A stretch of 62,003 nt of DNA, counting the filler, from Hausera hauseri (Eukaryota), in NCBI GenBank assembly GCA_046269625.1. It is 10 parts of 10 records of this genome, joined end to end, with 100 filler letters (N's around TTAATTAATTAA, not from the genome) between each part and the next. Parts side by side here need not be neighbours in the genome. Positions count along the whole stretch, not along the records: positions 39,970 to 46,769 come from JBJURY010064106.1; 9 more parts are not named here. One strand, given 5' to 3'. Of the stretch, positions 17,019-53,680 are shown piece by piece. A program made the translations under genes and the position numbers. How positions within the stretch are numbered: the first letter of the stretch is position 1; each line of letters opens with the position of its first letter. The notes under the pieces are model-generated. The model worked only from the letters and a program-made list of their open reading frames with translations. It ran no database searches and had not been told where the DNA came from.

Positions 17019-17106
17019 CAAAAAAGAACTCTAATCGTTCTTGTATAACCCAAATTAAGAATTCAAATCGGAGTTTTAGACGTCTTAGAAGAGTCTTAAT
17101 GCACAT
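17019..17106 (-). CDS. LTR-encoded small ORF, partial (MCIKTLLRRLKLRFEFLIWVIQERLEFFF...)
   Basis: Homologous to 43878-44036 with many synonymous codon differences. Confidence 0.7.
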
Positions 17107-17580
17107 TAATTGTTAGAAAGTATTTTTTCTATATCCCTTGTTTTGTTTAATCTAATCCAAATATACAATGGATTCGAAGGAGCTGTAAATTAAAGGAAAG
17201 AATTATTTATTTCTTACTGTTAAGGTTTTATTTATTTATTTGTAAGTGGCGTACCCTACTTGTGCTTCAGGTGCCAACGCTATTACTTAATGGGAATAGT
17301 TAATATTACTTATTAAAGAAGAGATCAATAAGTCAAACAATCTTTTCTTAGAATTGTTACTTCAAATCTTCTTTGTTCTGGATTCGGAGTGGTTTCCCTT
17401 TTTGTCAAGACTTCAAATAAGAATGAAAAATATATTTCAAAATGGAACTAAATATCAATGGTAATATAGTTACAATGACAAACAACAATAGTCAAAATGA
17501 ATATAAAAGAAAAAATTACCAGTTTTACCGTTTTATAAATTTATATAGGGAATCTAACCCAAAAATTTCTCCTTTGTTTG

Positions 17581-17690
17581 AAAACAGTAGAAGTCCGAAT
17601 AGGAGTAATCGAAGGAATTTAACCTTTTGTGCAATAATTCAAAATTGAAGAAGTCCGAATAGGACTAATCGAAGGAATTTAACCTTTTGT
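17581..17690. repeat. 60-bp-period tandem duplication in the LTR
   Basis: AGAAGTCCGAATAGGA(G/C)TAATCGAAGGAATTTAACCTTTTGT at 17589 and 17649. Confidence 0.9.
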
Positions 17691-18122
17691 AATGGAAACT
17701 AATAAACATTTTAGTTAACTTGGACTAAATTTATGTTTGATAAATTTCTTTTTTTTGTGTGTGTTCGTTGAAATTTAGGTTTGTATTTATACTAATTTTT
17801 CTCTTTTTAAAAAGGAGGTGTTAAGTTGCTGTTTTTAGCAACTTGTATATGGGTTTTTAGTTGCTTATTTTAGTAACCTTTACTGTTATTTTTCTGTGAA
17901 GTTTGGCACACATTGTAGCATCTAAATGCAGTGGTTAGTAATAACTTTAACATCTTATTTTGTTCATCGAACATCCATCGTCACTATTCATAGAAATCAA
18001 TCAATATTTTGTTCAGTGCAAAACAACTGCAACCACGCATTCTGTGAGTTACAATCGAGGCAGGTGATGTTGATTTAGTTATGGACATTACTTACTTAAC
18101 AAATGAATCTTAATACTTAACA

Positions 18123-18327: not shown

Positions 18328-21300
18328 TTAACTCGCCATTTTCACTATCAGTTGATGCGGTTGATTGTTCATTAATATAGGATTATCAGTTTTTTGAAGT
18401 CCATATAAGTTTTCTAGTATGTATCCGTTTGACCCTTGGTATAGAATCATTCGGATGTTTGATTTCGCGTAGTCCATTTGAAGGATCTTACCATTCCTTG
18501 GTTTAGGATATGGCGTGTCATCCAATTGCATGGGTATTGGCTGGAAATTTACAATTACTTCATGATGTGTTTGTTGGAGGATCTCATATTCAACTCCAAA
18601 AACAGCCATATGTAGAGTATTATGTGTCTGGTGTTTGTAGACTAATCCAATAACTTTACCAAAATTAGCATTGGAGATCAGTAAGTTTCCATTGTACGTA
18701 TGTAACGTAGTTGTCGGTATATACGTTACGTTGATTATTTGTTTCGAATTTCCATAAAATAAAATAGACAACCGAATTTTATTATCAGGTAGTTCTTTTG
18801 TAGCAAATTTTTTGAGATATTCCTTTGTATGTTCTTTGAGTTGCTGTATAATCTTTCTCTCGTCATCCGTATGAATCTCAATTTTTTCTTTGATATAGTC
18901 GTTATGATATTTTGAATCTATTTGGTCGAATGAACCGTTAGCAATTAGATTATTGATTGGAGGCGTCCATTGTAGGTTCCATTTTTCATTTGTACAGGTT
19001 TTATTTAGACTTTCATAAATATTGATAATGGCGTCCATGATTGATTCCGCGTTTTTTGGGAATTCGTAACTTAATCCGTATAATTGTGGTAATTTTGTGA
19101 GACATTGTTTGATTCCTTGTTCATTGAAACGATTTGTGGAATTTGAAATTGCGAAAAGATCTACTATCCAATGTAAAATATCCAGGGGTATCCTTAATGA
19201 TTGTAATATTGTAACCGTATTAACGCTGATAACGGTGTATCCAAACAAATACTTGATAATTTCTGCTCGTACCATTTCTTCGTCTGTTGATTGATTTATG
19301 ATGGGTAGGCTGAGCCCGTGGTAATGTTCATTCGAATTGTCGATCTTTATTCTTGGGTTAATGAATTCACGGTAAGTTATTAATCCGTTTGAGTCTGCTA
19401 TTATGACTTCAACAGGCAGTGGCTGTCCTCTTGTCGAATAGGATAAAGAGGTACTCAAATATCGGTAATTGTTGGTTCTGGTTAGCTGGAAATTCTGCTG
19501 TATGTCTTTTGGCGGTTTTTGGGCAAACATTGGTGGGTTTAGACCAAGATAATTATCCATAGGTTGACATATTTCTACGGCTATCACAATTGGAATAGTT
19601 AATGGTCTGAAATGGATAGGAGTTTGGAATGCTCTTGCTTTGATTTCTAATGTAGTTTTCGAGTTTATGATTGCTTCTTGAGGATTTGCTCCATCATAAA
19701 TTTCTTGTTCGGTTCGAAGTTGGATTTTACCTTGAGCCATGTGTAAAAATACGCATTTGAATGGTAATTTTATCCCGAAAATAGTACTCAAGTTTATGTC
19801 ATATAGTGCCTTATCTATTCGGATAATTTGGAAAGTGCGATCATTCGTCGTCATCGTTTTTAAATTATTAGGTAGAAATCTCGCCTCTGGGAAGAATATA
19901 TCATCTGTAGATTTAACAGCTTCCATTATAGTATTATAGAATTTTGGTGGAAAGATATTTCTTGGATCTTGATGATGCTTTACAAATTTCTGAGATAATT
20001 CTGTCCATGTCCTGTTTAGTATCTCATCTTGTTTGCATTCTTCCATATTTCGGATTATTGTTTCTCGCAACTTGAGATATTTCTTTGGTGGGAGATCTTC
20101 GATTTGGATTCCCTTTCGTCTTATTTCAATCATTGATTTAACTTGTGGCACATTACTGGAAACTGGTTTGGAGATGGGTATCGATAATATACCTCTTGAC
20201 ATTGGTAATTGAGTTGGATTACTGAAGGAGAACTGGGATGAACATGATTGAGTTGGTAGCACAACCCTTCTTTTAGGGTTTGCTATGACTGATATAATTG
20301 ACTGATCTGAATCTGATTCTGTGGATGAAGCGTCGAGATCGATATCTGTGTCCATTATTGTTGGAAACTCATCCCTTTTTTTAGAGATATTGTCTGTTGT
20401 TGCTGATATTTTATCCATATTTGGTTTTGAAAAAGTCGCTGTAAGAAAATAAAAATTTTTTATAGTATTTGTAATAGAGTAGGTGGTTACTCTATAGGTT
20501 TCTTGCTGACCAATTTCTATTGGTCTTTTAGACTTTGTGTAAAGTATTGTGCTTTGGTTGGCACATTTGTGTGTTGGTATATAAAATTTACTTATTTCAT
20601 GTGTGTGTTTATAAAGTTTTTTAAACTCCCAAACGCCAACTGCCCACTCCACACCAAAATCTGATCTAGTGGTTGCTAAACATATTAAGCTAGTTGTTAC
20701 TAATAGAGTTTTGTTCATAATAACTCGTTTTTTAGAGATTCTTTTTAATTCGATAATTATGAAAGGTGTGGATATAGAGAGTAACAAGAGTATTACTATT
20801 ATAGAAGGTATTATGGTTCTTAGCATGGTTATTTGACTATTAGGACTGGTAGTTAATTGGGTTGGTGTATTTATTAGAAATTCTTCGTGTATTACATATC
20901 TATCGGTTCTAGTTAGGGTTCTAACCGTTTGATGCTTTGTTTTTGCTTGGTTTTGAGTAAGAATGATCAAATATTCCTCGTCAGGTTGGAGATCAATACA
21001 TCGAGTTATTCTTTCTTTTTCTTTCATGACAGTGTATATATTATGGTATTTTCCTACGCAAGTTATGAATATGGGATCTTTTACTAATTGTAAAGTTTTA
21101 AATTCAATATATGAATCCGAGGGGGTGATGAGTATTTCAGGTATTTTACTTAGTTTGGAAGTAGTAATTTGATGGTTACTAAAAGTTGATAATGCTATCA
21201 TGGTTGGTGAAGTTATTTGCTTTACTTGGAAAAATTGTAATAGCGACATATGGATATGAAAGTTCAGAGCCTTTTCGCCGGACTTATGTTTGAACAATCT

Positions 21301-21564
21301 AGGGAAATAATATGTTATTTGTAAATCAACGTCGTTTGTTAAGGTCGGTCTCTTTACCATGACTTTGTCTATTAATTTTGGTTCATTGTCCTTTTCTTGG
21401 GTAAAGAAGAAGTTAGGGCCTATTTTTTCTACGTGTACCTGTCTTGCTATAGGCAGGATTTTCTGGTTTGGTTTCAATAACATTCTTGTTGTTAGAAAGT
21501 AAAGGTCTATAAGACAGATTTCATTTAATAATGGAATTGAACAACGTTTAGTTGATAACCAAAT
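18328..21564 (-). CDS. Intact Gypsy 3' ORF (>1078 codons, open to the contig edge): FN3-like ectodomain, TM, second hydrophobic segment, then accessory protein with an inactive DEDDh-like domain
   Basis: RCIDLQPDEEYLIIL (FN3-like); IIPSIIVILLLLSISTPFIIIEL-KRISKKR (TM plus basic stop); EVIIADSNGLITYREFINPRIKIDNSNEHYHGLS (DEDDh fold). Lies just 5' of PPT/LTR; collinear with 39970-42584. Confidence 0.85.
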   Translation of the reverse strand: MWLSTKRCSIPLLNEICLIDLYFLTTRMLLKPNQKILPIARQVHVEKIGPNFFFTQEKDNEPKLIDKVMVKRPTLTNDVDLQITYYFPRLFKHKSGEKALNFHIHMSLLQFFQVKQITSPTMIALSTFSNHQITTSKLSKIPEILITPSDSYIEFKTLQLVKDPIFITCVGKYHNIYTVMKEKERITRCIDLQPDEEYLIILTQNQAKTKHQTVRTLTRTDRYVIHEEFLINTPTQLTTSPNSQITMLRTIIPSIIVILLLLSISTPFIIIELKRISKKRVIMNKTLLVTTSLICLATTRSDFGVEWAVGVWEFKKLYKHTHEISKFYIPTHKCANQSTILYTKSKRPIEIGQQETYRVTTYSITNTIKNFYFLTATFSKPNMDKISATTDNISKKRDEFPTIMDTDIDLDASSTESDSDQSIISVIANPKRRVVLPTQSCSSQFSFSNPTQLPMSRGILSIPISKPVSSNVPQVKSMIEIRRKGIQIEDLPPKKYLKLRETIIRNMEECKQDEILNRTWTELSQKFVKHHQDPRNIFPPKFYNTIMEAVKSTDDIFFPEARFLPNNLKTMTTNDRTFQIIRIDKALYDINLSTIFGIKLPFKCVFLHMAQGKIQLRTEQEIYDGANPQEAIINSKTTLEIKARAFQTPIHFRPLTIPIVIAVEICQPMDNYLGLNPPMFAQKPPKDIQQNFQLTRTNNYRYLSTSLSYSTRGQPLPVEVIIADSNGLITYREFINPRIKIDNSNEHYHGLSLPIINQSTDEEMVRAEIIKYLFGYTVISVNTVTILQSLRIPLDILHWIVDLFAISNSTNRFNEQGIKQCLTKLPQLYGLSYEFPKNAESIMDAIINIYESLNKTCTNEKWNLQWTPPINNLIANGSFDQIDSKYHNDYIKEKIEIHTDDERKIIQQLKEHTKEYLKKFATKELPDNKIRLSILFYGNSKQIINVTYIPTTTLHTYNGNLLISNANFGKVIGLVYKHQTHNTLHMAVFGVEYEILQQTHHEVIVNFQPIPMQLDDTPYPKPRNGKILQMDYAKSNIRMILYQGSNGYILENLYGLQKTDNPILMNNQPHQLIVKMAS

Positions 21565-33435: not shown

Positions 33436-36400
33436 TAGAAACATTTCTCTTTGTTCAAACACATTAGTACATCGTACTAAGTGCAGCGTAATTGCGAGTA
33501 CACAGGCCAGTGGTCATGTAAGTCCAGCCTGATATACAGTAGGTCCGTGGGAAGACTTAACCTTCATGACCTTGCTGTCATCGGAATGTCGTCAGCGTTT
33601 AGCTGCCTTCTGTCTTACCAGCCTTTATCAAGCTATTTCCGATTTCAATTCGAAAATCTTTCAATGCCATGTATTTCACCTCCCCTATGCATCAAAGGTC
33701 TTATACAGCCACGCGTTATATACTGCTGTATCAATGATGTGATACAGTATTCTTATATATCATCTTCGGCTGCGCAAGCATGTCTGCTTTATCGACACCT
33801 CCATGTGAGTGTTGTATGCTTTGACGATCTCTGGTCTGTCGACTTTAATGTATTTTTCTCGGATTTATTCTATCTGCGACACTTAACGACCGAATCAGTT
33901 TCAATATATGACTATGCCAGCACCACCGCTTTATTGTCGAACCATTTGACTACATTTATATCGGAATGGTTCGCATATTTCACGTCAAACAAACCGCGGT
34001 CCCTTTTATTCAATTCTTTATCAGTCTACAGAGGACATAAAAGGAGAGTCAGGATTGATAACTTGTATTTTAAACCTCAAAAACATTCTGAGTAGTTGAT
34101 ATTTTGAGCACAAACAGAAAATATGTCCAAGAACTAAATGGTAGGCATTAAGTCGGAAAATTCAAATTGATAAATCAATTATCAATTATTAATTTTAAAC
34201 TTATAAGAACAGATAAGTGTATTCACATGGTTGGGATAATCTCACCGATCTGCTAACCCCTCTAGTGCAACCACATTAGGCGCTACATCACCCTATGGCA
34301 AAATGAAGATTATAAAGAAGGAAAAATAAACGTAGAATATCGTAAGGAAAGCTTGTACCTATTTGGTTTTGGTATCTGTCAGACGTTGGATTCCATCTAT
34401 GAACTCTCTACTGTAGGTGCTAAATGTCACTTCGTGTGACCTGTTAGATGTTGCTGGCGCTTGTGGAGTTGTTTGAGTTAGAGATGCTGTGGACTTTGCG
34501 ATGTTGTGGGAAGATGTTCCATGAAGAGGTAAAAGTGGAGAAGAAACTGAAGAGGAAAAAGATCACGCGAAAAAGGCGAAACTGGAGATGGAAGCGAAGT
34601 TGAAGTGAGTAGTAGATGTGCAGGCGATGACGGCGAAGTAGGTAGTGGAGGAGCAGTGGACGATGAGGGAAATGACAAGAACTGATTGTGACGCGATAGC
34701 GATAGCTGTAACGGATCAAAATCATCGAGGAAATTAGATGATAGTTCGATGGGAGAGAAGTTTGAGTTAGGATTTGAAACAGGGCTGTTATCCTGGTCAT
34801 CATCAACGAAGAATGCTGGCTTAAGATTAGAAATGTGTACATTTTGAGGTCTGTCCTTACGGAAAATAGCGGTGTGCGAAGAAAGGTTGGGTAGTTTATA
34901 AGGGCCAACATACTGAGTCCGAAAACCAGAGTGTAACGGATCCTTCAGCCACACAAACTTGGCTGAGTATAGGTCCTCTGGAATATACGATGTCTTTATT
35001 AATACGGAGGCGAAAGGCGTTTGATTTAACATCTACAAAGTGGGACTGTGCCGCACGAATAACTTCAGTTGACGGACTTTCATCGAGGTTGGAGAGCTCA
35101 AATAGGGCACGAATTGGTGTCCCAAAGGCAGCCTCAACTGGAGCACAACCTGTGGTTTTGGATGGCGTGTTGCGCCAACCGAGTGGGATAAGTGGAAGAA
35201 TTGAAGTTCACTTATGATTGTTTGCCAAGGTTTTCAAAGAAATCATGGTGCGGTGAAATCTCAAGAAGACCATTTGCTTGGGGATGGTACGGTGTTGTGT
35301 GGAAATGGGCCATTCCCAAGTGCTTTACGAGGGATTTGAAAAGGTCAGCTTCAAATTGCGGACCCTGGTCCGTTATAATGTGACGTGGTGAACCAAAGCT
35401 GCTGATCCATATTTTGATAGACATCTGCTACCGAATAGGTATTTGTTGATCGAAGAGGAAAGGCTTCCGGCCAGCGAGAAGCGCGATCCATCATAGATAA
35501 GATGTATTGATAACCGTTGTCGGATGGTAAGGGGCCGACAAGATTTAAATGAACGGTGTCAAAACGAGACGTACAAGGGAAGTGGTAAAGTGGTGGTTTG
35601 AGGTGTTTATGGACTTTATATTGCTGACATGCTACACATCCCTTAACCCAGCCTTGTACATCTGTACGCATAGTTGGCCATACAACGTGGCGTTGCAGTA
35701 AACGAAATGTGACTTTCGAACCCGGATGATGAAGCGAATGAAAGTGAGTGAAAGCTGTCTTCTGCAACGATGGAGCAAGAATGATTTTTTATTAGTCGAG
35801 TTGGATGTGTCGTAGGCGATGCTATCGATGATCTCAACAGATTTAAAAGCTTGGAGAATATCAAATGATGGCTGATTACTTCTCAGGATTTCAGAGAAAA
35901 TTGGCTGAACTGTAATTGAGCTGACCGACCGCGACAGAAAGTCTACTACTAAATTTTCGGTGCCCGAAATATATTTTATAAAAAAACTAAATGTCGACAG
36001 ATGATATCTGACGTTATTGTCTGGGTGATGGCTGTTTTAACGTCATGATATAAAGTAGAAGTTTATGGTCGGTTTGGATGACAAATTGACGTGAAAGAAG
36101 CAAATGCTTGAAATTCTTTACCTCTAGAACTATGGCCAGGATTTTACGATCGAATGTTGAGTATTGGCTTTCTGGATGCGTGAGCTTTCGGGAATAGAAT
36201 TCTAACGGCTCATCAACACCATTGTATATATGGTGTAATATCACACCAGTGGCTGTGGTAGAGGCATCGGCGGTTAGTATTAGTTCCGCGTTGGGTTTTG
36301 GAAAAGCCAGAATTTCAACGGTTTTCAGACCTTCACGAAGACGATCAAATTGGTTTATTAGATCAGAAGTCCAATGGATTAATTGTCTTTCCGGATGAGA

Positions 36401-38901
36401 GGTGTGCGAAAGGTGCCATTAGTTCGGAGCAGTGTGATACATTTGTGTACGAAATGCAGTGTCCCTAGAAAACTCCTCATGTCGGTAGTTGTAGTTGGTA
36501 ATGCCACATTTTCCAATTGTAAGCGATCAGGCGGGGGGAGGCGTTTAATGACCATCCGGAGTAATTACGTGTCCTAAAAAGTTGATGCGTTTCTGGAAGA
36601 AATTACATTTGGTGAAATTAATTTGTAGGTTGCTTTGATTCAATCTGTGGAAAATAAATCGGAGATGCTCATGATGTTTGATGGAGGTTGAAGCGACTAG
36701 TATGTCGTCTATATATGGATGAGCAAAATCAAGACCTGAGAGTACGGTGTCAATGTGGCGTTGAAAGGTCTGAGATGCATTACGTAGGCCGAAAGGGCAT
36801 GAAAACATATTCATAAAGGCCAAACGGTGTGATGACAGCAGTTTTTGTAATATCATGAGGTGCAACAGGAATTTGATGATAGGCCTTGTGCATATAAATG
36901 GTAGAATAAGTATTGGTGTTATTCAGTCTATGAAGGATGTCCTTAATGAGTAGTAGTGGATAGGCATCTGTAATAGTCAAGTTTAATTGACGGTAGTCGC
37001 CACAAGGCCTATAAGTACCATCTTTCTTTGCTACTACATGAAGAGGGGAAGCCCAAGGTGAATTTGATCTCCGAATGATGCCAGACTTTTCAAGTTCATT
37101 GAATTCCTGTTCCACAGCTTTACGTTTTATAAGAACAGATAAGTGTATTCACATTGTGGGGAAAATTCATGTGAAAATTCACCGATCTGCTAACCCCTCC
37201 AGTGCAACCACATTTCAGGCACTACAATCCCCTCAGTCGATTTTGTGCTATTGTCCCCACTACAAGAATTCCTTAAGTCTTGAGACTTTGCAGCAGTTCT
37301 TTTGAGGTGAACCAGTTGCCAAAATAGCATCGAAAATTCACACTGAATGGAAGCGTTTCAGTCAAACGCAGCATCACTGCTCCACCAACTCCTAAATTGT
37401 TCACTGCATCAACAGTATCATTACCCATGTAAACCAGAAAATCATATACTAACTTTTATGTCCCACTTATGAGGCTTGCTCTTTATATATTGTTTCATTC
37501 CATTTCTAACCTTGAGTGGTATCATTTGTTCATCAATAGAATGCAAAGGTACTGGTTCAATGTTCAATCAATTCTGATGAAACTGGTCAATCAATGGACG
37601 AACTTTAAAAAGGATGTAACCATCTTCATCTTTAAAATTAGTGTTGTCGTTCTTAAGAATGTAAGTTCGTAGATTGTCAAATCGTGTCCTGTACGTCACA
37701 TTTGCAATGTTACTGATATGACAAGCCGGAGACCAAGTACATTCTGCACCTTGGCACCCTAAAGATTGACGTGAACAACTGCATTACGATGAACTGTTCA
37801 CTCATCAGCGGTGCATCGCAGGACTATTCCTTTCTGCATAGATATTAGTTTGTAGCAGTGTGTTCAGACATCCCTCGATCAAAAAACATTCTAAAATATT
37901 CATATGAACTTGTGGCGTCTGGTGGTTGAGAGAATGGCTGCCCACGAAATTCAAAATGCGCTTCACGTCTTGTCATTTCTTTGACAACTCCAACGATAAA
38001 CCTTCTTAGCTACTGCACGAGAAGTATTGATGTCACCATCGTCATGTAAAGAATCATTTTCAACATCACCTGTTTCAGTGCTTACTTCAACACCCCCACG
38101 ACTCTGAACTTTCACCACGAGTCTTGTTCGACGACGCTGGAGTCTGGATTCTTTATTTTATGATTCTGACTTAACACTCGACTGTGCACTCGATGTCTCT
38201 GGCACAAAATCTTCATCCGATTTTTAGTGTCATGAAATTCATGTGCATTTTCAATATCTGATACTGTGTCATCTGGAATGTAAACAAGATACAAAACTTC
38301 ATCCATACTATAATAATTTCTTGAACTCGTCGCAACTCTGTCAAGTGAATCTGAAAACATAAACAAGCAAAATTAATAAAACAACAAGAAAATGTCTACA
38401 TTATATGCACATTCTTGATTACACACCGCACACCACACACAATATAGTTTGCATGATAATTAGGCTGCACAGTGCACATGTACACTTATATGGTCGTACT
38501 TTGCCTTATGAGCCAAATGTTTCAAATTTGCAAAGTTACTTTTATCGCCTTTTTAGCTCTAATAAATATAAAATTCCTTCACAACTAATGAATGATTATT
38601 CGTCTAACATCGTTTATTCACCATTTTAGCTAATGAAAATAAAATTTTCGAACCCTGAGATTAGATAGAAATCGTCAATGTGTACGCATTATCTACTGAG
38701 AAAGTAAACATTCATATGGCGTCAGCTGATCAAATGTCACAAGCTGAGCATAGAATTTGGCAGCAAAGAACTGTTGTAATAGTGCAACACGTCCCCAAAG
38801 GGCATAGAAACACACGTAGGCTCAAAACTAGATGACTGCAAACTGTTATTAAATTATAAATAACAGTTGCAAATTTGCAACTTCTGACCCCATAGGGTTA
38901 A
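33436..38901 (-). mobile_element. Degenerate piggyBac transposon split by a Gypsy insertion (parts 37227-38897 and 33436-34037)
   Basis: TTAA|CCC terminus at 38895-38901; KVRPLI, DEQMIP, KPHKW, NWFTS, GT..QNRLRG|CPL, KW.DNK, RPEIVKAYN.HM; Cys-rich C-terminus (HWP...CLNKEKCF). Confidence 0.8.
34038..37226 (-). mobile_element. Internally deleted CsRN1-like Gypsy element (partial 5' LTR 37127-37226, RT-RH-IN, 3' LTR ~34038-34287)
   Basis: SPWASPLHVV, PCGDYRQLN, YIDD, TADAS, TDQGPQFE, PYHPQANG; both LTR copies start TGTAG and share ~90 bp. Confidence 0.88.
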
Positions 38902-39969: not shown

Positions 39970-40510
39970 TAGATGCATTGACCTCCAGCCTGATGAAGAA
40001 TATCTAATCGTTTTCACTCAACACCATGCTGTAACGAGACATCGAATAATTAGAACTCAAACAAGAACTAGAAAATATTTAGCACTTGAAGAATTTCCAA
40101 TTTATACAACCCTACATCTAGTAACTAGGCCCACTACTCAAACCAATATGTTGAAAATCTTAATACCCTCCATAATAATAGTATTCTTTCTACTGTCCAT
40201 ATCCGCACCCTTTGTAATCATAGAATTAAAAAGATTTTCTAAAAAACGTACTATTATGAACAAAACCTTGTTACTCTCAACCAACCTAATATGCTTAGTA
40301 GGTTGTAGTGTGGCGTGGACGGTCGACGCTGAAAGGGATAAAACGTTTAACGTTAAAAATAACTACACTAAATTACATACACTACACAGAACGATAACAA
40401 TGATATACACATCAAAAAGTATAAGCAAATCTCAACCAATATATTTGCAACAACATAAACAACAAATAAAGCATCGAAGGGTAACCACCTACCTTCTAAC
40501 AAACCATTAA
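39970..40510 (+). CDS. C-terminal part of the Gypsy FN3/TM membrane protein
   Basis: RCIDLQPDEEYLIVF then LIPSIIIVFFLLSISAPFVIIEL-KRFSKKR-MNKTLLLSTNLICL, collinear with the 18328-21564 ORF. Confidence 0.8.
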
Positions 40511-40545
40511 AAATGACCTGCTATCAATTTATTTTTCTTTTCAGC

Positions 40546-42584
40546 ATGGATAATTTGAATACGCTAATTTATATACCCGAAAATCAAGGAGAAGAATTTA
40601 ATCCCGATTTGGACGGATCCAGTACAGAGTCAGATTCTAATGCTTCTATTATATCTATACTGCCAAATCCTAAAAGAAAAGTTCTATTACCTAATCAAGA
40701 ACAATTAACCTCTTTTACCTTTTCAAATGCATTGGCTACACTAATGACTAGAGGAATATTGGCACCCAAAACAAAGGATAAAAACCTGAGATAAGGAAAA
40801 CATCAATATCCATTTTGGACATCCGTTGCAAGCCTATAACCTATGATGATCTACCAGATCATAAGAAACTCAAATTACAAACCCAGATACTCAATAATAT
40901 ATCTCAAACCGATGAATACCAGTTATTAAATCGATCTATCAATGAATTGACTGATAAAAATTTATTCGAATCTACGATCCAAATCGAAATCTATATTCAT
41001 CCAAATTTTATGCTTATCTAACAGAATTAACTGAATCGCCAACGGACATTTTATATCCTGAATGCAAATACTTGGATAATGGATTGAAGACTACTACTCT
41101 CAATGATAGATCATTCAGAATACTAAAAATCGAAAATCCTGTATATAACTGTAACCTCACCAAATTGTTCGCCATACATGAAGATATTGACAAAGTTCTT
41201 GTGCACCTTGCTAAAGGGAAGATTCAACTAAGAGCACATTCCGACACCTTTAATGGACTTGATGAAACACGCACCATATTAACCAGTAAAAATTCTATGA
41301 AATTAGAACTGGCTGCTCTCCAAACACAGATTTATTTTAGAGTATAACTAACACCAGTAATACTTAGTATAGAAACATGCCACAAATCAGATCCAATGAT
41401 AGAACTTAAGAAACCCTTATTTCATAGTAGACCACCTTCAGGTACTATCAATTACAAGCTAACAATAACTTGTAATTATAGATATTTGGCTGCCTCTTTA
41501 GTTTATGCTGCTAATGGTGATCCTCTACCTATAGAGGTTATAATAGCAGACGAAAAGCAGCTAATCCTCTATCAAGCTTTCCTAAACCCAAGAAGGCGGA
41601 TATGAAATACAAACGAGCACATCCATGGGTTAAATATGCAACTTATACAAGAAGCTGCAGACGAAGATGTAATACGAAAAGAATTATTCAAGTTTCTTTT
41701 TAAATACGTAGTGGTCAGTGTCAATACCAATGCCATTTTAAAAGCACTACGAATGCCCAAGAGTCTGACATTCGGAAATTTAGATCTACTAGCTACGAAA
41801 AATACAAAAGAACGTTTTAAAGAACATGGATTACGAATTATTCTAACCCAATCGCCAACAATTTATGATTTTTCTTATGATTTTCCCAAAACCGCTGAAA
41901 CAGTTCTACAAGCGATATTCGAAATATATAACAAAGTCGAAAACTCATGCTCTAACGAAAATTGGACATTCGACTGGAACCCGCCTCGAAAGAATCTGAT
42001 AGATATAGGAAGATTCATACAAATTGAATCCACTTATCATGAAAATTATCAATTCGACAAAATCGAATCTATCTCTCCAATTGACGAGATGAAAATTAAT
42101 ACAGTTTCCATTTTAAAGCCAAAACCGGAAATAACATTTACAAGGCTTTCTATTTTATTATATGGAAAATATGGTGGATCTATAAATGTGCGCTACATTC
42201 CTCAAGCAATATACTCCATAACCACAGAGCACCTAATACTCCCAAATAAAAATTTTGAATGTGTTAGGTATAGTATATAAAAATGCTACTCATCAAACGC
42301 TCCACCTAGCCATAATTGGTGGTAATATAGAAGAATTGTTAAAAGTAGAACACGAAACGTTATTGACGCATCAACCAATTCCAATACAACTGGAACATAC
42401 TCCTATTCTCAAACCAAGGAGAAGACTACCAGTTCAATTAAAAAATACTGCCAAACAAAAGGTCCGTATGATTTTGTATAAAAACAAAACTGAACTAATA
42501 TTGGAAAATCTGTACAAAATGCCAATTTCAAATCAGTCAAGCGAAGAACTACTCCAATCAGTTTATCCGGCTATCCAAATCTGA
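40546..42584 (+). pseudogene. Gypsy 3' accessory ORF with an inactive DEDDh-like domain, degenerate
   Basis: Collinear with the C-terminal ~700 aa of 18328-21564 (DLD.SSTESDS, GKIQLR, PLP(I/V)EVIIAD, HGL, NE.W...W.PP); several stops and frameshifts. Confidence 0.85.
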
Positions 42585-42769
42585 CTTTATATCTTATTTG
42601 TGATGAACAAGTAATTGATTAGACTTTAATCTTTGTGATGATACTTTTGAACATTTTGTAGTTTTATTTTTATATGTAACGAATTTTATGCTTTTACTGT
42701 ACATATACTAGTGCACTATGTAAAAATGAAAGGAGTGACTTATCAAAATTTTCATAAGAAAATTTTTAT

Positions 42770-42785
42770 AAAAGGGGGTGGAAGA
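42770..42785 (+). promoter_or_regulatory. Polypurine tract
   Basis: AAAAGGGGGTGGAAGA, matching AAGGGGAGGAAGA in the other copy. Confidence 0.8.
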
Positions 42786-44103
42786 CGTTACAGAATGAGG
42801 TCAGAAATTAATTGATGATTAATTTATTTGAATTATGAGTACAAAATGTCAAGAAACATTTTTAAAATTTGTAAACATCATAGTTAGATTAATGAATCGT
42901 GAAATTACAACTAAAATCAGTCCAAAACAGTAATGCGTTAATTGCTGGATGTTGAAAGCAAGTTTTGCTTAATTACTGATTTGAGTTTTTTTTCGCAATG
43001 ACAAAGTGTCAACTACTACATTCATGATTTTATCGATTAAACGATGTAATTTAAATGATAAAATGATAACTATTTCATCAATTGAAAATGCTACACGAAA
43101 GCATTTAATAAACTAAAATTATGACACAAAATATACAGTAAACGGAGTATGTCGATGTTACTGCTAAATCAAACAGTATTATTAAACAGCACTTATTTTG
43201 ATAAACGAAAATTATCAATATACAGTAAATGAATTATATCGTTTGATTTTATTGATGTTACTGCTAAAATTAAACAGCACTATTAAACACCCACTATAAT
43301 TGAACCAACACCTATATGAATTAAATCAACACCCATACAAATTAAATCAACACCCACAAAGTAAATAAGCAAAACACCCCTGACAAAATAAATTTCTCCC
43401 AATAACGTAAAAATACTATAAAAGAAAAACCAAAAAGAATGAGAATGAACAGCAGTTAACATAGAAAATTTACTCAATTACGAGTCAAATATCACTCCTT
43501 TTATTTTCAAATTATTCGTGATTATTGTACATTTCTGGGTTCAATTCCCATCTTGTACATTTACGAAATTGCAATTTTGCTTTTCAGTTACTAATTGGAC
43601 TTCGGTAAACTTTTATTTATTTTTGTAAGAAACCATATTATTTGTTGTTCTTTCTATTCTCTATAATTAATTTTAAACTCAATCCCACAAATTAATCAAG
43701 CGGCAGCGGTCGAAACCAAAGTAGACCATCGCTGAACTACACAAAAGTAAATAAATTAAAACATTAAGGGAAAATAATTCTTTCTTTTGATTTAAATATT
43801 TTCCTTCTCAATCCATTTCGTTTGGATTAGAACAAATCATACATAAGGGACTCCAACAACAATTGAAATTTCATTAAATGTTTACGAAAATTAAAAATTT
43901 CTTAAGAAAATTAAGAAACAGAATTGAATTTTTAATCTGGGTTACTGAAGAAAGATCAGAATTTTTCTTCGGAAGAAAAGCTATACAAAAAGAAATAAAA
44001 CATCAACAAGAATTAAATATGCAACGAAGCTTTTAATTAGAGACAAGAATCCGAATTTTTAAACTCTTCAATATAGTTTGAAATTTTGGACAGTGAACCA
44101 ACA
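42786..44103 (+). mobile_element. Complete ~1.3-kb LTR (CGTTA...CAACA; first base presumably T>C)
   Basis: Bounded by PPT on the left and PBS on the right; internal short repeats at 43131-43380; homologous to 17019-18122. Confidence 0.8.
43878..44036 (+). CDS. LTR-encoded 52-aa ORF MFTKIKNFLRKLRNRIEFLIWVTEERSEFFFGRKAIQKEIKHQQELNMQRSF
   Basis: ATG-to-TAA ORF below the ORF-track cutoff; protein-level conservation with 17019-17106. Confidence 0.75.
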   Translation: MFTKIKNFLRKLRNRIEFLIWVTEERSEFFFGRKAIQKEIKHQQELNMQRSF

Positions 44104-44107
44104 TTTC

Positions 44108-44126
44108 TGGCGACCCTAACAGGACT
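44108..44126 (+). promoter_or_regulatory. Primer-binding site, tRNA-Arg type
   Basis: TGGCGACCCTAACAGGACT versus TGGCGACCGTGACAGGACT, the complement of a tRNA-Arg(UCG) 3' end as recalled; 4 nt after the LTR end. Confidence 0.8.
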
Positions 44127-44287
44127 TGTCTCTAAATCAAAGTTACAATTAAAACACAAACATACCTAGAAAATGTCCTAATAAACGTGCGACTGTCGAC
44201 TCCACACAAAATCTATAACTTAAAGATCTAGTAGTAAACCTAGAACCTTTAAATCTTGCCTTATTATATCCAGACTTACAAAACGAA

Positions 44288-45397
44288 ATGGCACAACCTC
44301 CACCAATTAACTTAACCATTCATAAACCTCTAAATATTCCAAAATATAACGGCGATCCTGCCGGTTTACTCAAGTTTTTGAAAACTTATCGCTTATTAAG
44401 CGAAGGATTAGGCGTTGATCAACAAGCCTATATCCGTAGAATGCCCCTCTACTTAGATGAAGTAGCTCTTGACGTTTTCCAAGAAATAACTCCTGAAGAA
44501 AAAGCTGATTGGGATAAATTAACCTCTGCACTAATTAAACGTTTGATGCCAACGGTAACCCCAACAGCTCAACTAGCCATCTTACAAAAAAGATTTCAAC
44601 AATCTGGCGAAACTGTTACTCAGTATTCTTATGCCCTATCAGAACTAGTAAAAAATTACGCCAACACTGTTAAGACCCAAATCTTAATTAAAAAACCTAA
44701 CGCAAAAGAAGATGAATTAAAGGTTGAAACAGACATTCACCTATTAACCCAATTTTTGAAAGGTGTCAGAAAAGACATCAAAACAGACATCTTAAAAAGA
44801 AATTGCCTAACATTCAATGAAGCAGTGCGTGAAGCACAGAATCTCGAGGCATATGTAGGCCCTTATAAAGACGAACGATTTTCTAAGTCTAACCAAAGAT
44901 TTAACAATCAAAATTCGAATAACCAACAACAAAATCAGCAACAGAACCAATCTAAATCTCAAAATGAAAATAATCAACAACAAAGCCAAAATAGAACCCA
45001 ACAAAATCAAAATAATTACAATAATTTAAACAATACCAACAGTTCATATTCAAAGAATAATAATTATGGAAAAAGACAGAATAAGAATAACAATTCATCT
45101 AACCAATATCAACAAAAAGGACGTGTTGATGTTAATAGAAATGGTACACCTTTAGTTTGCCGAAGATGCGAACAAACAGGCCATAATTCAATAAACTGCA
45201 TGAACCTTCTATATCAACTTCCAAGAGTAAAACAAGAAAATACAGTCAATTTATCATCCCTTCATGAAACATTAGATGTTAAGCTAAAATTAGATAAATT
45301 AACACCCCAAGTTAAAGAACAATTTATCAATCAAGCCGCTAATGCTCGATTTTATGCTGTTAATGTAAACGATAAACAAAACAACGAAATCAAATAA
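44288..45397 (+). CDS. gag: Intact Ty3/Gypsy Gag (capsid, Q/N-rich linker, CCHC knuckle)
   Basis: IPKYNGDP...FL..Y; MPLYLDEVALDVF; FQQSGETVTQYSYAL; QFLKGVR; CRRCEQTGHNSINC. Confidence 0.92.
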   Translation: MAQPPPINLTIHKPLNIPKYNGDPAGLLKFLKTYRLLSEGLGVDQQAYIRRMPLYLDEVALDVFQEITPEEKADWDKLTSALIKRLMPTVTPTAQLAILQKRFQQSGETVTQYSYALSELVKNYANTVKTQILIKKPNAKEDELKVETDIHLLTQFLKGVRKDIKTDILKRNCLTFNEAVREAQNLEAYVGPYKDERFSKSNQRFNNQNSNNQQQNQQQNQSKSQNENNQQQSQNRTQQNQNNYNNLNNTNSSYSKNNNYGKRQNKNNNSSNQYQQKGRVDVNRNGTPLVCRRCEQTGHNSINCMNLLYQLPRVKQENTVNLSSLHETLDVKLKLDKLTPQVKEQFINQAANARFYAVNVNDKQNNEIK

Positions 45398-46869
45398 AAT
45401 AATTAAGACTATTTTCAGCATTCGAATTGAACTAATTAACGATACGAAAAAACAATTGAATGTATTTTGTTTTGTCCATTTTCACACCATTAAATGATAA
45501 ATTAGAATTCTCCTATTTTTATTATAGGACAAATGATTCTCTAGTTGGTCCTTGAAAAGGATTGGTCGGTATTTCTAGATAGTCGTGATAAAAAGTATTG
45601 ATCTGGTGCTTTTCACTTAGCGCATTGACTGTTTTTGTACCAGGATTAATTTTGAGTTGTATTGAGGCACAACAGCACATTTTTCTTGCAAGGAGACTTA
45701 CCTAATTTTATGTTAATTGCTGTTCTGTCGATTTTGTTCATTTTTATTTATATTCACGTTACTGTTTTCAAATTGCCGATTAATTCTTTGGCTCATAACA
45801 AGTTGGATGAATTCGTAAACAAAGGCTACAGATGGATCTGTTCGACATTCGGTGATCCGAGTGGGGACAAAATCCTTGGTGTTATACAAAATAATAAAAA
45901 CGGGGCGATCTTGGATTTGCACAAATTGCAACTGGTTGGCTATTTGTAATCCTCGCAGTGTAGCTGCGATAGACGTAACGAGATTGGAAACGGTCGACAC
46001 GGTTCTATTGATTGTTATTAAATCCTGATAGCCACTGTTATTTTGCTACATTTGACGATTTTATAACTCTACCGCACAACTATATCTGAAATTGCCGTTA
46101 ATGTAGAGCTTGGAATAGCAGCATTAAGTGTGGGTCTGGACCGCTCAGCAGCAAGATTCTGTGACGGATGATGAAAAGCCGCAATTACCGACAACGTCGG
46201 GGCAAAAACGCCGCACCGGTTAAACCGGCCAAAATGGTCCACTGGGCAAAACAACATTGTGAACACTACAATACATTTCATGAAACAAAATTATAATAAT
46301 GTAAGTTACCAAGTAATAATGTCGACTTTGGATTTCTCCGATCGATCAGTGTTTTATTCTTAGATACTATTAGTTAGATTAAATAGACAATGTAAATAAA
46401 TTTGTTCATAGTTTGTCCGATTACAACAATATTAATAATTTAGACTAAACACATCAGTGATCACAAACTATAAGCCGAATATTCGATGGATATTTCTTAT
46501 TTCAGCAGAACATAAAGGAAATGCTGTAAATCGAATGTTAAAAGAATATTAACTTGAGAAATGTGATGAAAATCTTGTCAAAGTTCAAAAGTTCTTACAT
46601 ATGGGGAATTTGAACAAGTGCGTAATGGCCTAACACTTACACACTCGAAATGCGTTATCCTGGCTTCTTTAGCAAGTTTTTTTTCATATTACCATACAAG
46701 CATTATGTTATGAACTGAGCAAATGTTCCAAAATAAAGATTAGTAAATATCAGAGTAGGCGGCTAATTGNNNNNNNNNNNNNNNNNNNNNNNNNNNNNNN
46801 NNNNNNNNNNNNNTTAATTAATTAANNNNNNNNNNNNNNNNNNNNNNNNNNNNNNNNNNNNNNNNNNNN

Positions 46870-47921: not shown

Positions 47922-48489
47922 ATTTAAATTTTAATTTGAAAGTCGTCGTTTACATTTTCATACAGACTATTTATTGAACAGAATGACGGATTTTTTGATC
48001 TCACACCGTGATGCGTAATCCATTTCGACGATTGTCTTCCAGTATTCAATTTTGTACAATCGCAATATTTTGATTCGTTTTTATGCAATTTTGTTTTGTC
48101 CAGATTTAATGATTTTTTACGTTTTCAATATTAACTTTTATATGTGGTTTTACGCTAATCCAGTTTTTTATTCATGTACATAATTGTTTGTTAAAAAATT
48201 AATTTGTTTTAATACAAGAAGTTAACCTGGAAAAGTTTGAAATTTGAAAAATGAAGACATTTGATTTGTGAACTTTGCATTCATTATTTCGATCCCAATT
48301 TATAACATTTGAATATTTCATTTTGCTTTTATGATTTTTTGATATCACTACATTGGAGCTACATTAGAACATAAACTTTCACAATTCGCCATTTTGACAT
48401 CATAACAATCTTATGGGTGGATTTAATTTCTGAATTTATCTCTCGTTTTCAAAGCTGAAATTTATTTGTTAAATCTAACAGACGTGATT

Positions 48490-51400
48490 TGTTAGATGTT
48501 ACTAATGCTTGTGGAGTTGTTTGAGGGAGAGACTGTAGATTTCGTGGTGTTTTGGGAGGATGCTTCATGAAGAGGGAAAAGGATCACGCGCAGAAGATGA
48601 GACTGGAGATGTGAACGAATCGTGCAATGAAGGTGAAATGAGTAGTGGATGTGCAGGCGATGACGGAGAAGCCAATGTTGAAAGAGCAGTGGATGATGAC
48701 GGAAGTGAAGAAAACTGATTGTGACGCGAGACTAAATGCTGCGAAAGACTAAAATCATCAAGGAAATTAAATGATGTATCGAGGGTAGAGAAGTTAGAGT
48801 TGGAATTTGAGACAATGCTGTTATCCTGGTCAACGAAGAAGGCCGGCTTAAGATTAGAAATGTCTACGTTGTGAGGTCTGTCTTTGCATAAAATAATGTC
48901 GTATGCAAAGAAAGGTTCACTAATTTGTAAAAGCCAACGTATTGGAGCCGAAAACCAGAAGGAGACGGATCCTTCAGCCATACAAACTTGGCTGAGTATA
49001 AGTCCTCTGGGATATAAGATTTATCTTTATTTGTAAGGCGGCAGAAGGCATTCGAGTTGACATCAGAAAAGTAGGACTGTGTTGCACGAATAACTTTATC
49101 TGACGGACTTTCATCAAAATTGGAGAGCTCAAATAGTGCACGAACTGGTGTCCCAAAGAGAGCCTCAGCTGGTGCACGGCCTGTGGTGGTGAATGGCGTG
49201 TTGCGCCAACCGAGTAGGACAAGAGGAAGAATTGAGATCCAGTTATGATTGTTGTTTGCCAGGATTTTTAAGGAAATCTTCATGGTGCGATAAAATCTTT
49301 CGAGAAGACCATTTGCTTGAAGATGGTACGCCGTCATATGGAGACGGGCTATCTCCAAGTACTTTACGAGAGATTTGAAAAAATCAGCTTCAAATTGCGG
49401 ACCCTGGTCCGTTATAATGTGACGTGGTGAGCCAAAACGGCTGACCCATATCTTGATAAATGCATCTGCTACTGAGTCAGTGTTAGCTGATCGAAGCGGA
49501 ACGGCTTCTGGCCAGCGAGAAGCGTGATCCATCATGGATAAGATATATTGATAACCATTGTCGGTAGATAGAGGACCCACAAGTGCTAAATGCACGGTTT
49601 CAAAACGAGAAGTGCAAGGGAAGTGGTAGAGTGGTGGTTTGAGGTGCTATGAACCTTGTATTGCTGACATGCTACACATCCCGTGACCCAGATCTGTACA
49701 TCGGTACTGATAGTTGGCCATACAACGTGGCGTTGCAATAGGCGAAATGTGGCTTTTGAACCCGGAGAATGAAGACAGTGAAAGTGATTGAAAGCTGTTC
49801 TAGTCCTTTTCGTGGGTAAAGTAAATCCATAGTAATGATAAATTCCGAACGATAAATTCCAAAAAAGGAGAAGCTGATTATTAACTTTTATTTCTTTAAA
49901 CTTCAATTCTTTTTAAAAAAACTGCGATCAATTATCTTTCATCAATATTTATTTACTTTATATTTATTTACACAACACTTATATACAATATTTCTTTACA
50001 CAATAATACTCTTCTGCCCACTAGAAGGGAATATTGTAAAAGTGTAAGATGAGGTAAAAAGTTATTTGTAAGGACATTTTGGAAATTTGTCAATTGAGGA
50101 AAGATATACACTGAATCATCGAAATTGTCTTCCAGGGATAATGAATGGTAAAATATTTTCGTTGATGTAAGTCTATGAATCTAAGACGGATGGATACAAG
50201 AACTGATAACTTCCCGTAACATTTTGTCTGTCATTACATGAGGGTATCTGGAAACTGGCCGCTCAATGCGTTTATGACAACTCACCTTACTGTATGACAT
50301 TCATCATATGGACTTATTTTTTGTTTCTAACATCGTGCTGTTCATTGTAAATTTTAGAAGCCGTGAATACAACAGTTTCCTAGTATCGTATCCAAAATTG
50401 CCAAACTGAACATTGAGATATCGACCCGTTGTTTGTTTTCTAAAATGAGAGAGTCACATGTTGGAGAGATGACTATTTTCGCTTAAGGTTGAATTTTTAC
50501 CTCTGAGGAAACGAGCTGCGCCCGCGACAGCTGTACCACAGCTGTCTTTTGAAGCGAAGGAGCAAAAATAATTTTCTTGTTAATCGAGTTGGAGGTGTCA
50601 TAAGCGACGCCATCGATGATTTTAACAGATTTAAAAGCTTGAAAAATATCAGATGATGGCTGATTGTTTCTCAGGACCTCAGAGGAGAAAATTGGCTAAA
50701 CTGTAATTGAGTTAACCGACCGCGAAAGAAAGTCCGCTACTAAATTTTCGGTGCCTGAAATATATTTCATGGAAAAACTAAATGTTGACAGATATGATAT
50801 CTGTCGTTCTTGTCTGGGTGAGGGCTGTTTCAAAGTCATTATGTAAAGTATAGGCTTATGGTCGGTTTGGATGGTAAATTGGCGTGAAAGAAGCAAGTGC
50901 TTGAAATGCTTTACCGCTAGAACTACACCCAAGAGTTCACGATCGAATGTTGAGTATTGACTTTCCGGTTGCGTGAACGTCTGGGAATAAAATTCTAATG
51001 GTTCATCGACGCCTTTGTATATTTGGTGTAATATTGCACCAGTTGCTGTGGTTGAGGCATCGGTAGTTAATATTAGTTCAGCGTTTGGCTTTGGAAAGGC
51101 CAATATTTCCACAGTTTTCAGACCTTCACGAAGGCGATCAAATTAGTTTACTAGATTTGGAGTCCAATGGATTAATTGTCTTTTCTACCCAGATGAGACG
51201 TGTGCCAAAGGTGCCGTTAATTTGGAGCAGTGTATCATGTATTTGTGTACGAAATTTAATGTGCCTAGAAAACTCCTCATATCGGTAGTAGTGGTTGGCA
51301 ACGTCACATTTTTTAATTGTTGTAAGCGATCAGGCTTGGGCAAATGCCCTTTGGGAGTAATTATGTGACCTAAGAAGTTGACATGTTTCTGGAAGAAATT

Positions 51401-53680
51401 GCATTTCTCAAAATTAATTTGCAGGTTGCTTTGATGCAATTTGTGAAAAATAATCCTAAGGTGCTCATGATGTTGTTGGATGGAGCTGGAAGCAACTAAT
51501 ATGTCATCTATGTATGGATGAGCAAAATAAAGACCAGAAATAACGGTGTCAATGTGGCGCTGAAAGGTCTGAGATGCACTACGTAGGCCGAAAGGCATGA
51601 AGTTGTATTCATAAAGGCCAAATGGTGTAATGACAGCAGTTTTTGGAATGTCATCAGGTGAAACAGGAATTTGCTGGTAGGCCTTGAACAAATCAATGGT
51701 AGAGTATGTATTGGTGTTATTAAGGCTATGGAGAATATCCTTAATGAATGGTAGTGAATAAACACCTGTAATAGTTAGGTTGTTTAATTGTCGATAGTCG
51801 CCACATGGCCTATGGGTACCATCTTTCTTTACCACTTAATGAAGAGGAGAAGCCCACGTGAATTCGATCTCCGAATGATGCCAGACCTTTCCAGTTTATT
51901 AAATTCCTGTTCCACAGCTTTACGTCTGCGTGGTGACAAGGGTCTGACCTTTTGTTTGATCGGCCTTTAATGCTCTGTAATAATGTGATGATAGGTTAAG
52001 AATAAGAGTTTGAAGTTGATTTAACTTTTAACTATGCGAAAGCATGATGTCGTGATGTACGATTTAAGATTGTAGTCTAGAGAAAGGAATGAATGAGGCA
52101 TATCATCAGAAAGAACAACTCCAATGATTGACGAAAGGTAACTGGCATTGCTACTGTCGACGCCTAATTTGGATTTTTGTTTTAGAATAGATTCATGATT
52201 GTCGTTCATAATTGAAGTATTACCGACTTTATCGGAAGTTTTTTATAGATTACGAAACATTCAACATGTTTACAGAGGAGTGCAATGAATGACTCGCTAA
52301 GTTGTGTACGAGACATATGTTTGGAGTGGCAATCGAGTTCCTACTTAAAAGACAGCCGTATTTGCAGTCGACCAATAGATCATGTGCGGCTGGAAAATCT
52401 GAGCTTATTGTGGGAGATTTAATGTTGGCTACGCGGAACTTCCAGACAAACTTATTTGGCAAGTTAACAAATGTAAAAGTCAATTCAATGGTTCCTGAAA
52501 CGTACAACGGTTGACCACTAGCAGTGAAAAACGGTGGACAGGAAATTATAGTGGATGTAGGAGTAAAGGACAAGGGAAGGAGTGAAAAAGCAGCTCCTGA
52601 GTCTATAAGTAAGTCGATATGTGAAGTATCTCTGCATAACAGCGCAGTTTTCAACAGAAAGACTACAGAGACGGTTTTAAAACGGCCAGAAGATTGAGCA
52701 ATATTGCCTACGACAATGTGCCGTAAAATCTGGCGGCATTATTAATTTTTTGAAGGATTTGGAGAAAAGGAAGAAGAGAAAAAAAGCGAGGAGATTTATC
52801 GTTGTAATGTTTACAACCGGGCACGCATGATCTAGCCTGTGACTGGTATTTGTTGTGGTATGTGCAAATAGGGTTGTCCACAGCGTACCGTTCGCTGTAA
52901 AACCAACAGCTCAAAAAGCATTTCCTAGCATCGCTTCAAAATTGCGTGTGATAAAAGCTAATCATACGTCCTCCAGGTGAAATGGATAGAGTAGAGTGTC
53001 TGGAAATGCTCCTCTTCCTTGAAGATCTTGTTTCACTTCGTCGAGGCCCATTAAGATTATTTAGTTGGGTAGTAATGGCCAAAATCGACTGAAGTAACTT
53101 GTCAAACTGTTGCTGCATTATTTGCAATTGTTGAGTAAAAAATGTTGGGCCTGTAGTTGGGGCACATGTGGTTTTAGCCGCAATAGAAAGAGAACTGTTG
53201 GTATGAAGAATCTCAAAGGATTTGTCAACTATTATTGCCAGTTTTTCGATAACAGTGGACTCGTCGACAACGGTGATTAAGGCTCTGATTGAGGTTGGCA
53301 AAGATGGCAAGAAATAACGGCGAATTAAATCCGCGTTATTCGTAGGTGTCATTCTTAGAGGGCTAAACTACAAAATGGCCGTTTGGAGAAAATAGGATGG
53401 CTTTTGGTTTCGTATCGCGTGGTCGCTAAAATACTTTTGTATTATATTTCCAATCGAAGGATCCGTGACATGCATTACAGCTTCACAGAGAGTCTCGTAA
53501 GGTGTCGAGGATTGGAGCAGCTCGAAGATGTTACTAATCTGCTGCTTGACGTTGGCAGGCAGAAGAACTTAAAGACTGTTGGCTTGCACAAAAGAATCAG
53601 TGGTGTTTTTTCTATTTTAGCCACTGTTGGTGGAATTAAAGCCATGTATTGTGCTCTGCTGTCCGATGGTTCTTAAAATT
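48490..53680 (-). mobile_element. CsRN1/Kabuki-type Gypsy gag-pol, degenerate
   Basis: Gag knuckle ICTYHNKY...ARSCVPGC; protease LIDSGA; RT PCGDYRQLN and YIDD; RH TTDAS, ELL, TDHK; IN TDQGPQFE, ANGLLER. Same family as 34038-37226. Confidence 0.92.
49799..50540 (-). mobile_element. LTR-derived insertion inside the integrase zinc-finger region
   Basis: Flanked by GCTGT direct repeats; starts TGTGG and matches the LTR at 46870-47029; absent at the equivalent site in the other copy (~35755). Confidence 0.65.

Follow-up and report, generated by a model that had tools for sequence, protein, structure and literature searches.

In Hausera hauseri, a 52-codon open reading frame (ORF) lies wholly within the long terminal repeat (LTR) of a retrotransposon, and the peptide sequence that it encodes has very probably been under purifying selection in the replicating lineages of the element, judging from the substitution pattern between two diverged copies and among related assembly contigs. 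A fuller interpretation, in which a small accessory gene provides the first frame of the RNA begun in the 5' LTR and its selected peptide docks on membranes through a helix and grips a partner in trans, is advanced here as having slightly less than an even chance of being correct.

The carrier element and its setting

The window analyzed comprises 62,003 nucleotides of assembly GCA_046269625.1, in which ten unrelated contigs, with abundant retrotransposon fragments, are joined by N-padded spacers. The contig at 39970-46769 carries, in this order, pieces of a long accessory ORF, a polypurine tract (PPT), an LTR, a primer-binding site (PBS) and gag (Table 1). Here the LTR at the 3' end of one unit is also the one that leads into gag of the next, either in a tandem array or through an assembly join, and it is owing to this arrangement that the LTR is bounded on both sides. 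The minus strand of the contig at 17019-21564 holds the same long ORF, tract and LTR of a second, diverged element, and is cut inside the small ORF. Ty3/gypsy-type features are present in the form of the PPT, an LTR with TG..CA ends (TGTT at the start of the second copy, which the first base of the window copy does not match, and AACA at the 3' end of the window copy) and the PBS, and on these features the carrier appears to be a gypsy-type LTR retrotransposon. The PBS beginning TGGCGACC at 44108 may be of the tRNA-Arg type; neither tRNA genes nor Rfam matches were found in the whole window. The gag product matches Retrotrans_gag (E 1.2e-4; 22.7 bits, under the 24.1 cut-off) and Ty3_capsid (E 0.0018, also under the cut-off), and homologue searches with this protein returned nothing. 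No pol follows gag on 39970-46769, and pol is absent from the contig of the second element as well; a distant relative on contig 1, with 20-25% identity in the long ORF, shows the order RT-RNase H-integrase. On that contig, a run of ORFs behind integrase (2176-5022, plus strand) ends in this distant relative of the long ORF, and an FN3-like motif can be discerned by eye at 3046-3447.

The long accessory ORF precedes the PPT and includes a hydrophobic segment. A profile of this ORF and its distant relatives (seven rows) matches DEDDh exonucleases, with ISG20L2 as the best match (E 2.5e-8), and the first acidic motif of the DEDDh-like domain seems by eye to be missing. The structural model is poor (mean pLDDT 42) and includes a possible cupin-like region, for which reason the cupin matches are only a lead. 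A full HMMER search with the long ORF recovered two distant unnamed proteins, and the other homologue search with it found nothing. One distant relative, P0003, has an additional C-terminal RING finger.

Table 1. Coordinates of the small ORF, its carrier and the second element along the window
Feature	Position	Strand	Remarks
52-codon small ORF	43878..44036	+	Inside LTR; residues 5-31 conserved, tail more variable
LTR, 1318 bp	42786..44103	+	PPT upstream, PBS downstream; assigned from sequence
Polypurine tract	42770..42785	+	Assigned from sequence; similar tract at 18135-18123 in second copy
ATG-free stretch, 430 nt before small ORF	43448..43877	+	Presumed 5' leader
AATAAA	43750..43755	+	Putative poly(A) signal; a U-rich block, present in second copy too, comes after it
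PBS, beginning TGGCGACC	44108..44125	+	4 nt behind LTR; assigned from sequence
gag, one CCHC knuckle	44288..45397	+	In another frame than small ORF
Long accessory ORF of preceding unit	39971..42584	+	Broken up by frameshifts and one stop; domain resembling DEDDh exonucleases
Second small-ORF copy	17019..17106	-	Start codon at 17106; contig end cuts after 29 codons
LTR of second, diverged element, incomplete	17019..18122	-	Cut by contig end
Long accessory ORF of second element	18328..21564	-	Open for 1078 codons to contig end

Several other features of the window are recorded here in their own right. A 59-codon antisense ATG frame (43283-43462, minus strand) occupies the same LTR as the small ORF. 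Two decayed pol copies (34436-37125 and 48484-51925) are 79-84% identical, and an inverted repeat at 25532-26264 has 183-nt arms, 84% complementary and 367 nt apart. One contig bears, at 10953-15114, a fragment of protein-primed DNA polymerase B and a TBP-like fragment, which we take to be Polinton-like. A fragment of what looks like a host gene, at 29698-31146 (minus strand), encodes a FERM central domain. Lastly, at 54027-60500 (plus strand), protease-like, RT, RNase H and integrase pieces are preceded by a ubiquitin-like segment and a Monjiviricetes-type fusion protein, and an env-before-pol order is described for the planarian Burro elements in the available part of PMC6431247.

Coding constraint on the small ORF

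Translation yields 52 residues followed by a stop, in agreement with the original prediction of a 52-amino-acid ORF within the LTR. The frame starts 1092 nt into the LTR in the window copy and 1016 nt in the second copy, and ends 67 nt before the LTR end and 71 nt before the PBS; its start lies four codons ahead of the conserved block in one copy and two in the other. In the alignment with the second copy (17100-17020), 18 of 27 codons specify an identical amino acid and 11 of those do so through different synonymous codons, which are exactly the counts first reported. With only two copies available as sequence, one of them incomplete, the comparison gives pN 0.18 and a saturated pS of 0.84, for a pN/pS of 0.21 (bootstrap 0.07-0.47); the remaining five frames show pN/pS of 0.55-1.06, and four of the five contain stops. 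When the same 25 base changes are relocated at random, at least 18 identical and at least 11 synonymous codons are obtained in 0.01-0.06% of trials. Allowing for any 27-codon window in six frames at 31% divergence, such a result has a probability of 0.0012 when the scan is confined to the alignable block (343 nt), rising to 0.0055 when it takes in the whole LTR. The length of the frame is ordinary, a plus-strand ATG frame of at least 52 codons arising in 145 of 1000 LTR shuffles, and the 18 identities are not significant by themselves, being attained in 52% of whole-LTR trials at 31% divergence. The signal of selection is carried by the synonymous excess, and not by the length of the ORF or the count of identities.

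The surroundings set this conservation in relief. Upstream of the small ORF, the LTR flanks align at 38-65% identity per 50-column block, with runs of gaps, and a blastn comparison of the window with itself (E<=1e-5) detects no LTR-LTR match, which bears out the patchy alignment of the surrounding LTR that had been described. Between these two elements the long ORF retains 46% identity, with a pN/pS of 0.50 over 627 codons, against 67% identity and a pN/pS of 0.21 in the small ORF, which is hence the better-kept frame; 18 identities in 27 codons are reached in 3 of 340 windows of the long ORF.

In principle, conservation of this stretch could reflect an RNA structure or some other cis-element, the open frame being a by-product. 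Each copy of the small ORF is predicted to fold into three hairpins, with a z score of -2.5 in the window copy, but z is -1.1 in the second copy and only four of the 26 and 24 predicted pairs are common to both, all of them at unchanged bases. The two-copy consensus fold is weak (-2.7 kcal/mol, with zero double-sided changes), the folds are no stronger than those of random recodings of the peptide (fractions 0.07 and 0.13), and structure would not favor synonymous change, so that this explanation retains next to no probability. The three hairpins of the ORF, together with a hairpin before the AATAAA (z -1.26 and -0.01, not significant), were rejected as conserved structures.

Variants in the contigs of public sequencing runs provide a second view of the constraint. 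Six runs contain part of the stretch, with no RNA data set among those listed, which says nothing about expression; four were aligned on 43600-44400 and two on 43866-44050, the latter alignment comprising 60 contigs of run X1 and 13 of run X2, limited to those at least 80% alike. These contigs are assembly pieces, not copies, and X1 may be the source of the window itself; runs X3 and X4 do not cover the small ORF. The depth of X1 is 100-900 over the small ORF and exceeds 5000 from 44032 on, so many relatives share the PBS and gag without an ORF region at least 80% alike. We scored 36 differences, 33 of them from the 43866-44050 alignment and three from among the 40 rows shown of the 162 on 43600-44400. 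Differences shared at 5-90% of X1 depth, a class whose limits we chose ourselves, are synonymous in 11 of 17 cases, against 4.0 expected (P 1.6e-4), and under a stricter class limit in 11 of 20 (P 9e-4). By contrast, only one of the eight differences private to the window copy is synonymous and seven are non-synonymous; rare differences are synonymous in one of 11 cases, and private and rare differences together in two of 19 (shared versus remaining differences, Fisher P 0.001). Pooling all 36 leaves a weak excess (13 synonymous, 8.2 expected, P 0.04). The synonymous bias runs on to codon 41, and the differences in the final codons are mostly non-synonymous.

The frame itself is largely intact among these contigs. 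No frame-shifting indels were found in the small ORF among X1 and X2 contigs over 43866-44050, where the only indels listed form a compensated pair, an insertion and a deletion separated by three bases and seen in a single contig of each run, and single-base indels occur in non-coding 44066-44076 and 44133-44138 in 2-6 contigs, among the 12 rows shown of 29. One low-depth X2 contig has codon 13 changed to a stop. Read by eye, a loose-end row of X2 made up of one contig opens with a stop after codon 44, and such a row of X2 ends, likewise by eye, in an in-frame start codon directly before codon 6. Among shared variants, neither frequent frameshifts nor a dN/dS near 1 were observed. Because shared variants are synonymous-biased and private and rare ones are not, selection can be said to have acted on replicating lineages, and we interpret the pattern as selection during replication followed by decay of inserted copies. 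The purifying-selection signature claimed for the ORF (pN/pS 0.21, look-elsewhere P 0.001-0.006, synonymous bias among shared contig variants) thus holds across replicating lineages, but does not extend to the window copy, which is now decaying and no longer under selection, with seven of its eight private differences non-synonymous. That the ORF is a functionless piece of a captured host gene carried in the LTR is very improbable, given its presence at the same place in two elements with saturated synonymous sites, the synonymous bias of the variants shared among copies and the failure to find a family or homologue for it; an ancient host origin of the small ORF is possible.

Proposed translation from the element's RNA and predicted role of the peptide

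Upstream of the small ORF, no ATG occurs for 430 nt in the window copy and 600 nt in the second copy, with 21 and 11 ATGs beyond, so the small ORF would likely be translated first. The shuffle probability of this ATG-free run is too small, because the run was defined after the fact. Counterparts of the AATAAA at 43750 occur in the second copy, 126-134 nt ahead of its small-ORF start, and the presence in both copies of AATAAA and a U-rich block about 130 nt upstream would place the small ORF in U5. This hexamer is frequent in DNA so rich in AT. The claimed location, behind AATAAA-like signals and within the LTR ahead of the PBS (44108), is confirmed, and the reading of the frame as an upstream ORF on the genomic RNA agrees with the ATG-free stretches, given the presumed start and poly(A) sites. 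Both small-ORF starts have a pyrimidine at -3 and the gag start, 251 nt behind the small-ORF stop and 184 nt behind the LTR end, has a purine at -3 and a G at +4. The ATGs intervening before gag (44019 and 44173) are altered in nearly all of the aligned depth, and the presumed leader has a single ATG frame of at least 30 codons. In the simplest model, the RNA would start upstream, within the ATG-free stretch, and ribosomes would reach the weak start of the small ORF first, many of them scanning on to the strong start of gag, such that leaky scanning would yield both proteins from one RNA. Taken as a whole, this arrangement of an upstream RNA start, an ORF in U5 that is translated first and a Gag made by leaky scanning is probable on the sequence features.

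A spliced gag message that skips the small ORF is possible, given a donor-like site at 43747 and, 15 nt ahead of gag, an acceptor-like site at 44273. The tail, as the least conserved part of the peptide, could be taken to indicate that the small ORF instead supplies the first coding exon when a message is spliced to the long accessory ORF or another downstream frame, or that Gag itself starts here as in Ty1; splicing is the usual route by which third ORFs of LTR elements are expressed, according to the available part of PMC5408684. No donor-like site scoring at least 6/9 exists in the window small ORF, however, nor is any such site common to both copies, and the frame has its own stop, differs from that of gag and shows synonymous bias to codon 41, leaving little likelihood for a spliced exon. 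The small ORF might instead act in cis as a conserved-peptide upstream ORF (uORF), its nascent chain slowing the ribosome and thereby determining how much Gag is made or whether the RNA is translated or packaged. It has the first ATG of the presumed leader and stops 71 nt short of the PBS and 251 nt short of gag, a place that would suit such a role, but arrest peptides are usually conserved near their end, and here conservation peaks at residues 15-31 and the last codons bear mostly non-synonymous differences. For Rous sarcoma virus (RSV), the excerpts available of PMC5035971 propose that leader uORFs balance translation against packaging, yet also report that translation of uORF3 is unneeded for packaging. 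We consider action in cis quite unlikely.

The favored reading, a peptide made for action in trans, draws on the properties of the peptide itself. Its pI is 10.6, residues 1-14 have a hydrophobic moment of 0.71-0.79 and six Lys/Arg and zero acidic residues precede residue 17, in line with the basic amphipathic N-terminal helix of the original prediction. Five hydrophobic residues occupy one face of residues 5-16, and in residues 16-31 hydrophobic positions lie all round. Conservation is greatest for aromatic and acidic residues, and the core contains the fixed residues Glu17, Glu25, Arg26 and Glu28. The peptide is modeled as one helix (mean pLDDT 89.6), although a lone-helix model built from two sequences says little, and a complex prediction with two copies of the peptide scores 0.02. 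There is no transmembrane segment, the best 19-residue Kyte-Doolittle means of the two copies being 0.20 and 0.84, where the usual mark is about 1.6. Residue 2 is Phe in one copy and Cys in the other, without the Gly2 of myristoylation, and the basic stretch comes before the hydrophobic core. Searches for small-ORF homologues among proteins of 28-91 aa, JGI metagenomes and viral contigs, Pfam and NCBIfam returned none; the best Atlas match (0.75) is a lead only, and PHROGs gave one match (E 0.2).

The basic N-terminus and the pI could alternatively point to a nuclear regulator, whose basic helix would bind the RNA or DNA of the element and aid its transcription, read-through of its 5' LTR poly(A) signal or its export. 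A two-copy profile of the peptide does match the NarL DNA-binding domain, over 23 residues in its last helices (E 0.02), and in the portions available of PMC11952523 and PMC10309623 the sORF1 of 412 is nuclear and CERV exports genomic RNA. Nevertheless, the NarL match is lost with a single protein, no LuxR-type family in Pfam or NCBIfam matches the peptide at E<=10, the peptide starts too late for a helix-turn-helix and is modeled as one helix, its best-kept residues are aromatic and acidic, and the hairpin before the AATAAA is not significant. A nuclear regulator is accordingly held to be unlikely. A LuxR/NarL-type helix-turn-helix was rejected on the loss of the match with a single protein and its extent of only 23 residues.

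In the proposed mechanism, residues 1-16 would lie on an acidic membrane surface, such as that of mitochondria or the inner face of the plasma membrane, and the aromatic core (16-31), with its fixed Glu and Arg, would pack against a partner, Gag or a host protein, the charged tail forming a loose extension. The peptide would then act in trans, helping to place capsids or tuning the host cell during replication, in the manner of WDSV Orf C, which is encoded at a similar position. The combination of a membrane-docking helix with a partner-binding core is a tentative assignment from modeled features, in which we place somewhat less than even confidence, and it appears rather unlikely that a gypsy-type lineage has, entirely within its LTR, a dedicated gene for a microprotein that is membrane-active or directed to mitochondria.

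Significance and comparison with known systems

LTRs are regarded as non-coding, and frames as short as this one fall under annotation limits. The sORF2 of 412 has shown that a tiny ORF can carry a whole transmission mechanism. The screen behind the sORF2 relatives filtered on transmembrane and myristoylation motifs, both of which the small-ORF peptide lacks, and a selected LTR microprotein without a transmembrane segment points to a further class of hidden accessory genes, for which the contrast between shared and private variants offers a cheap screen of LTRs. If the LTR does encode such a membrane-active or mitochondria-directed microprotein, solo LTRs would also make it, because promoter and gene share one repeat, and would spread a host-modulating gene without the rest of the element.

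The comparison with known systems draws on the available portions of the sources cited. The 412/mdg1 sORFs of Drosophila resemble the small ORF in being short frames upstream of gag in Ty3/gypsy elements, with low dN/dS, amphipathic and basic motifs and reading from the genomic RNA (in the present case a presumed one). They are located, however, in the internal part of the element, after the LTR and ahead of gag (10.1101/2020.09.24.311225); sORF1 has about 110 aa, a predicted helix-turn-helix and a nuclear location, and sORF2 has 63-107 aa, a transmembrane segment and often Gly2 (PMC11952523). The small ORF, in contrast, lies inside the LTR and has 52 aa, and its leader has one ATG frame of at least 30 codons instead of two sORFs separated by a poly(A) site. 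Unlike sORF1, its product has one predicted helix and no predicted helix-turn-helix; unlike sORF2 and FAST-like fusogens, it has no transmembrane segment, no Gly2 and no polybasic patch behind a membrane segment. The suggested link to these sORFs consequently finds no match in position, size, transmembrane segment, Gly2 or helix-turn-helix, the comparison being one of descriptions, and in the available text of PMC11952523 and 10.1101/2020.09.24.311225, the word tRNA, which would bear on the tRNA-Arg priming attributed to 412/mdg1, does not occur.

Similar in position is Orf C of WDSV, an accessory ORF 5' of gag presumed to be read from full-length RNA, whose mitochondrial location is predicted to depend on an amphipathic helix at 78-89 (PMC3185748); it differs in being retroviral, longer and ending 7 bp before gag. 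Like the CERV protein of Cer1 in C. elegans, the small-ORF product is a clade-specific Ty3/gypsy accessory protein without homologues outside, but CERV has 517 aa and is encoded by spliced gag-region exons and a 3' ORF, not by the LTR (PMC10309623). The RSV leader uORFs are likewise small frames before gag on genomic RNA; they are discussed as cis-regulators, whereas here the peptide sequence itself is selected across saturated divergence (PMC5035971). Extra ORFs in plant elements are described in the internal region (PMC7264820), and the non-subscription literature searched, in part available as excerpts, yielded no precedent for an ORF that lies entirely within an LTR and encodes a peptide under selection. 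The carrier, for its part, resembles the bdelloid Juno and Vesta elements in having an exonuclease-like extra ORF before the 3' LTR, although their ORF3 is DEDDy and that of the carrier is DEDDh-like and also has a hydrophobic segment and a possible cupin-like region; the available part of PMC5408684 describes no peptide encoded by the LTR of Juno or Vesta. Set beside these systems, the small ORF is a real gene under selection in an unusual place, with a demonstrated coding constraint and a predicted role.
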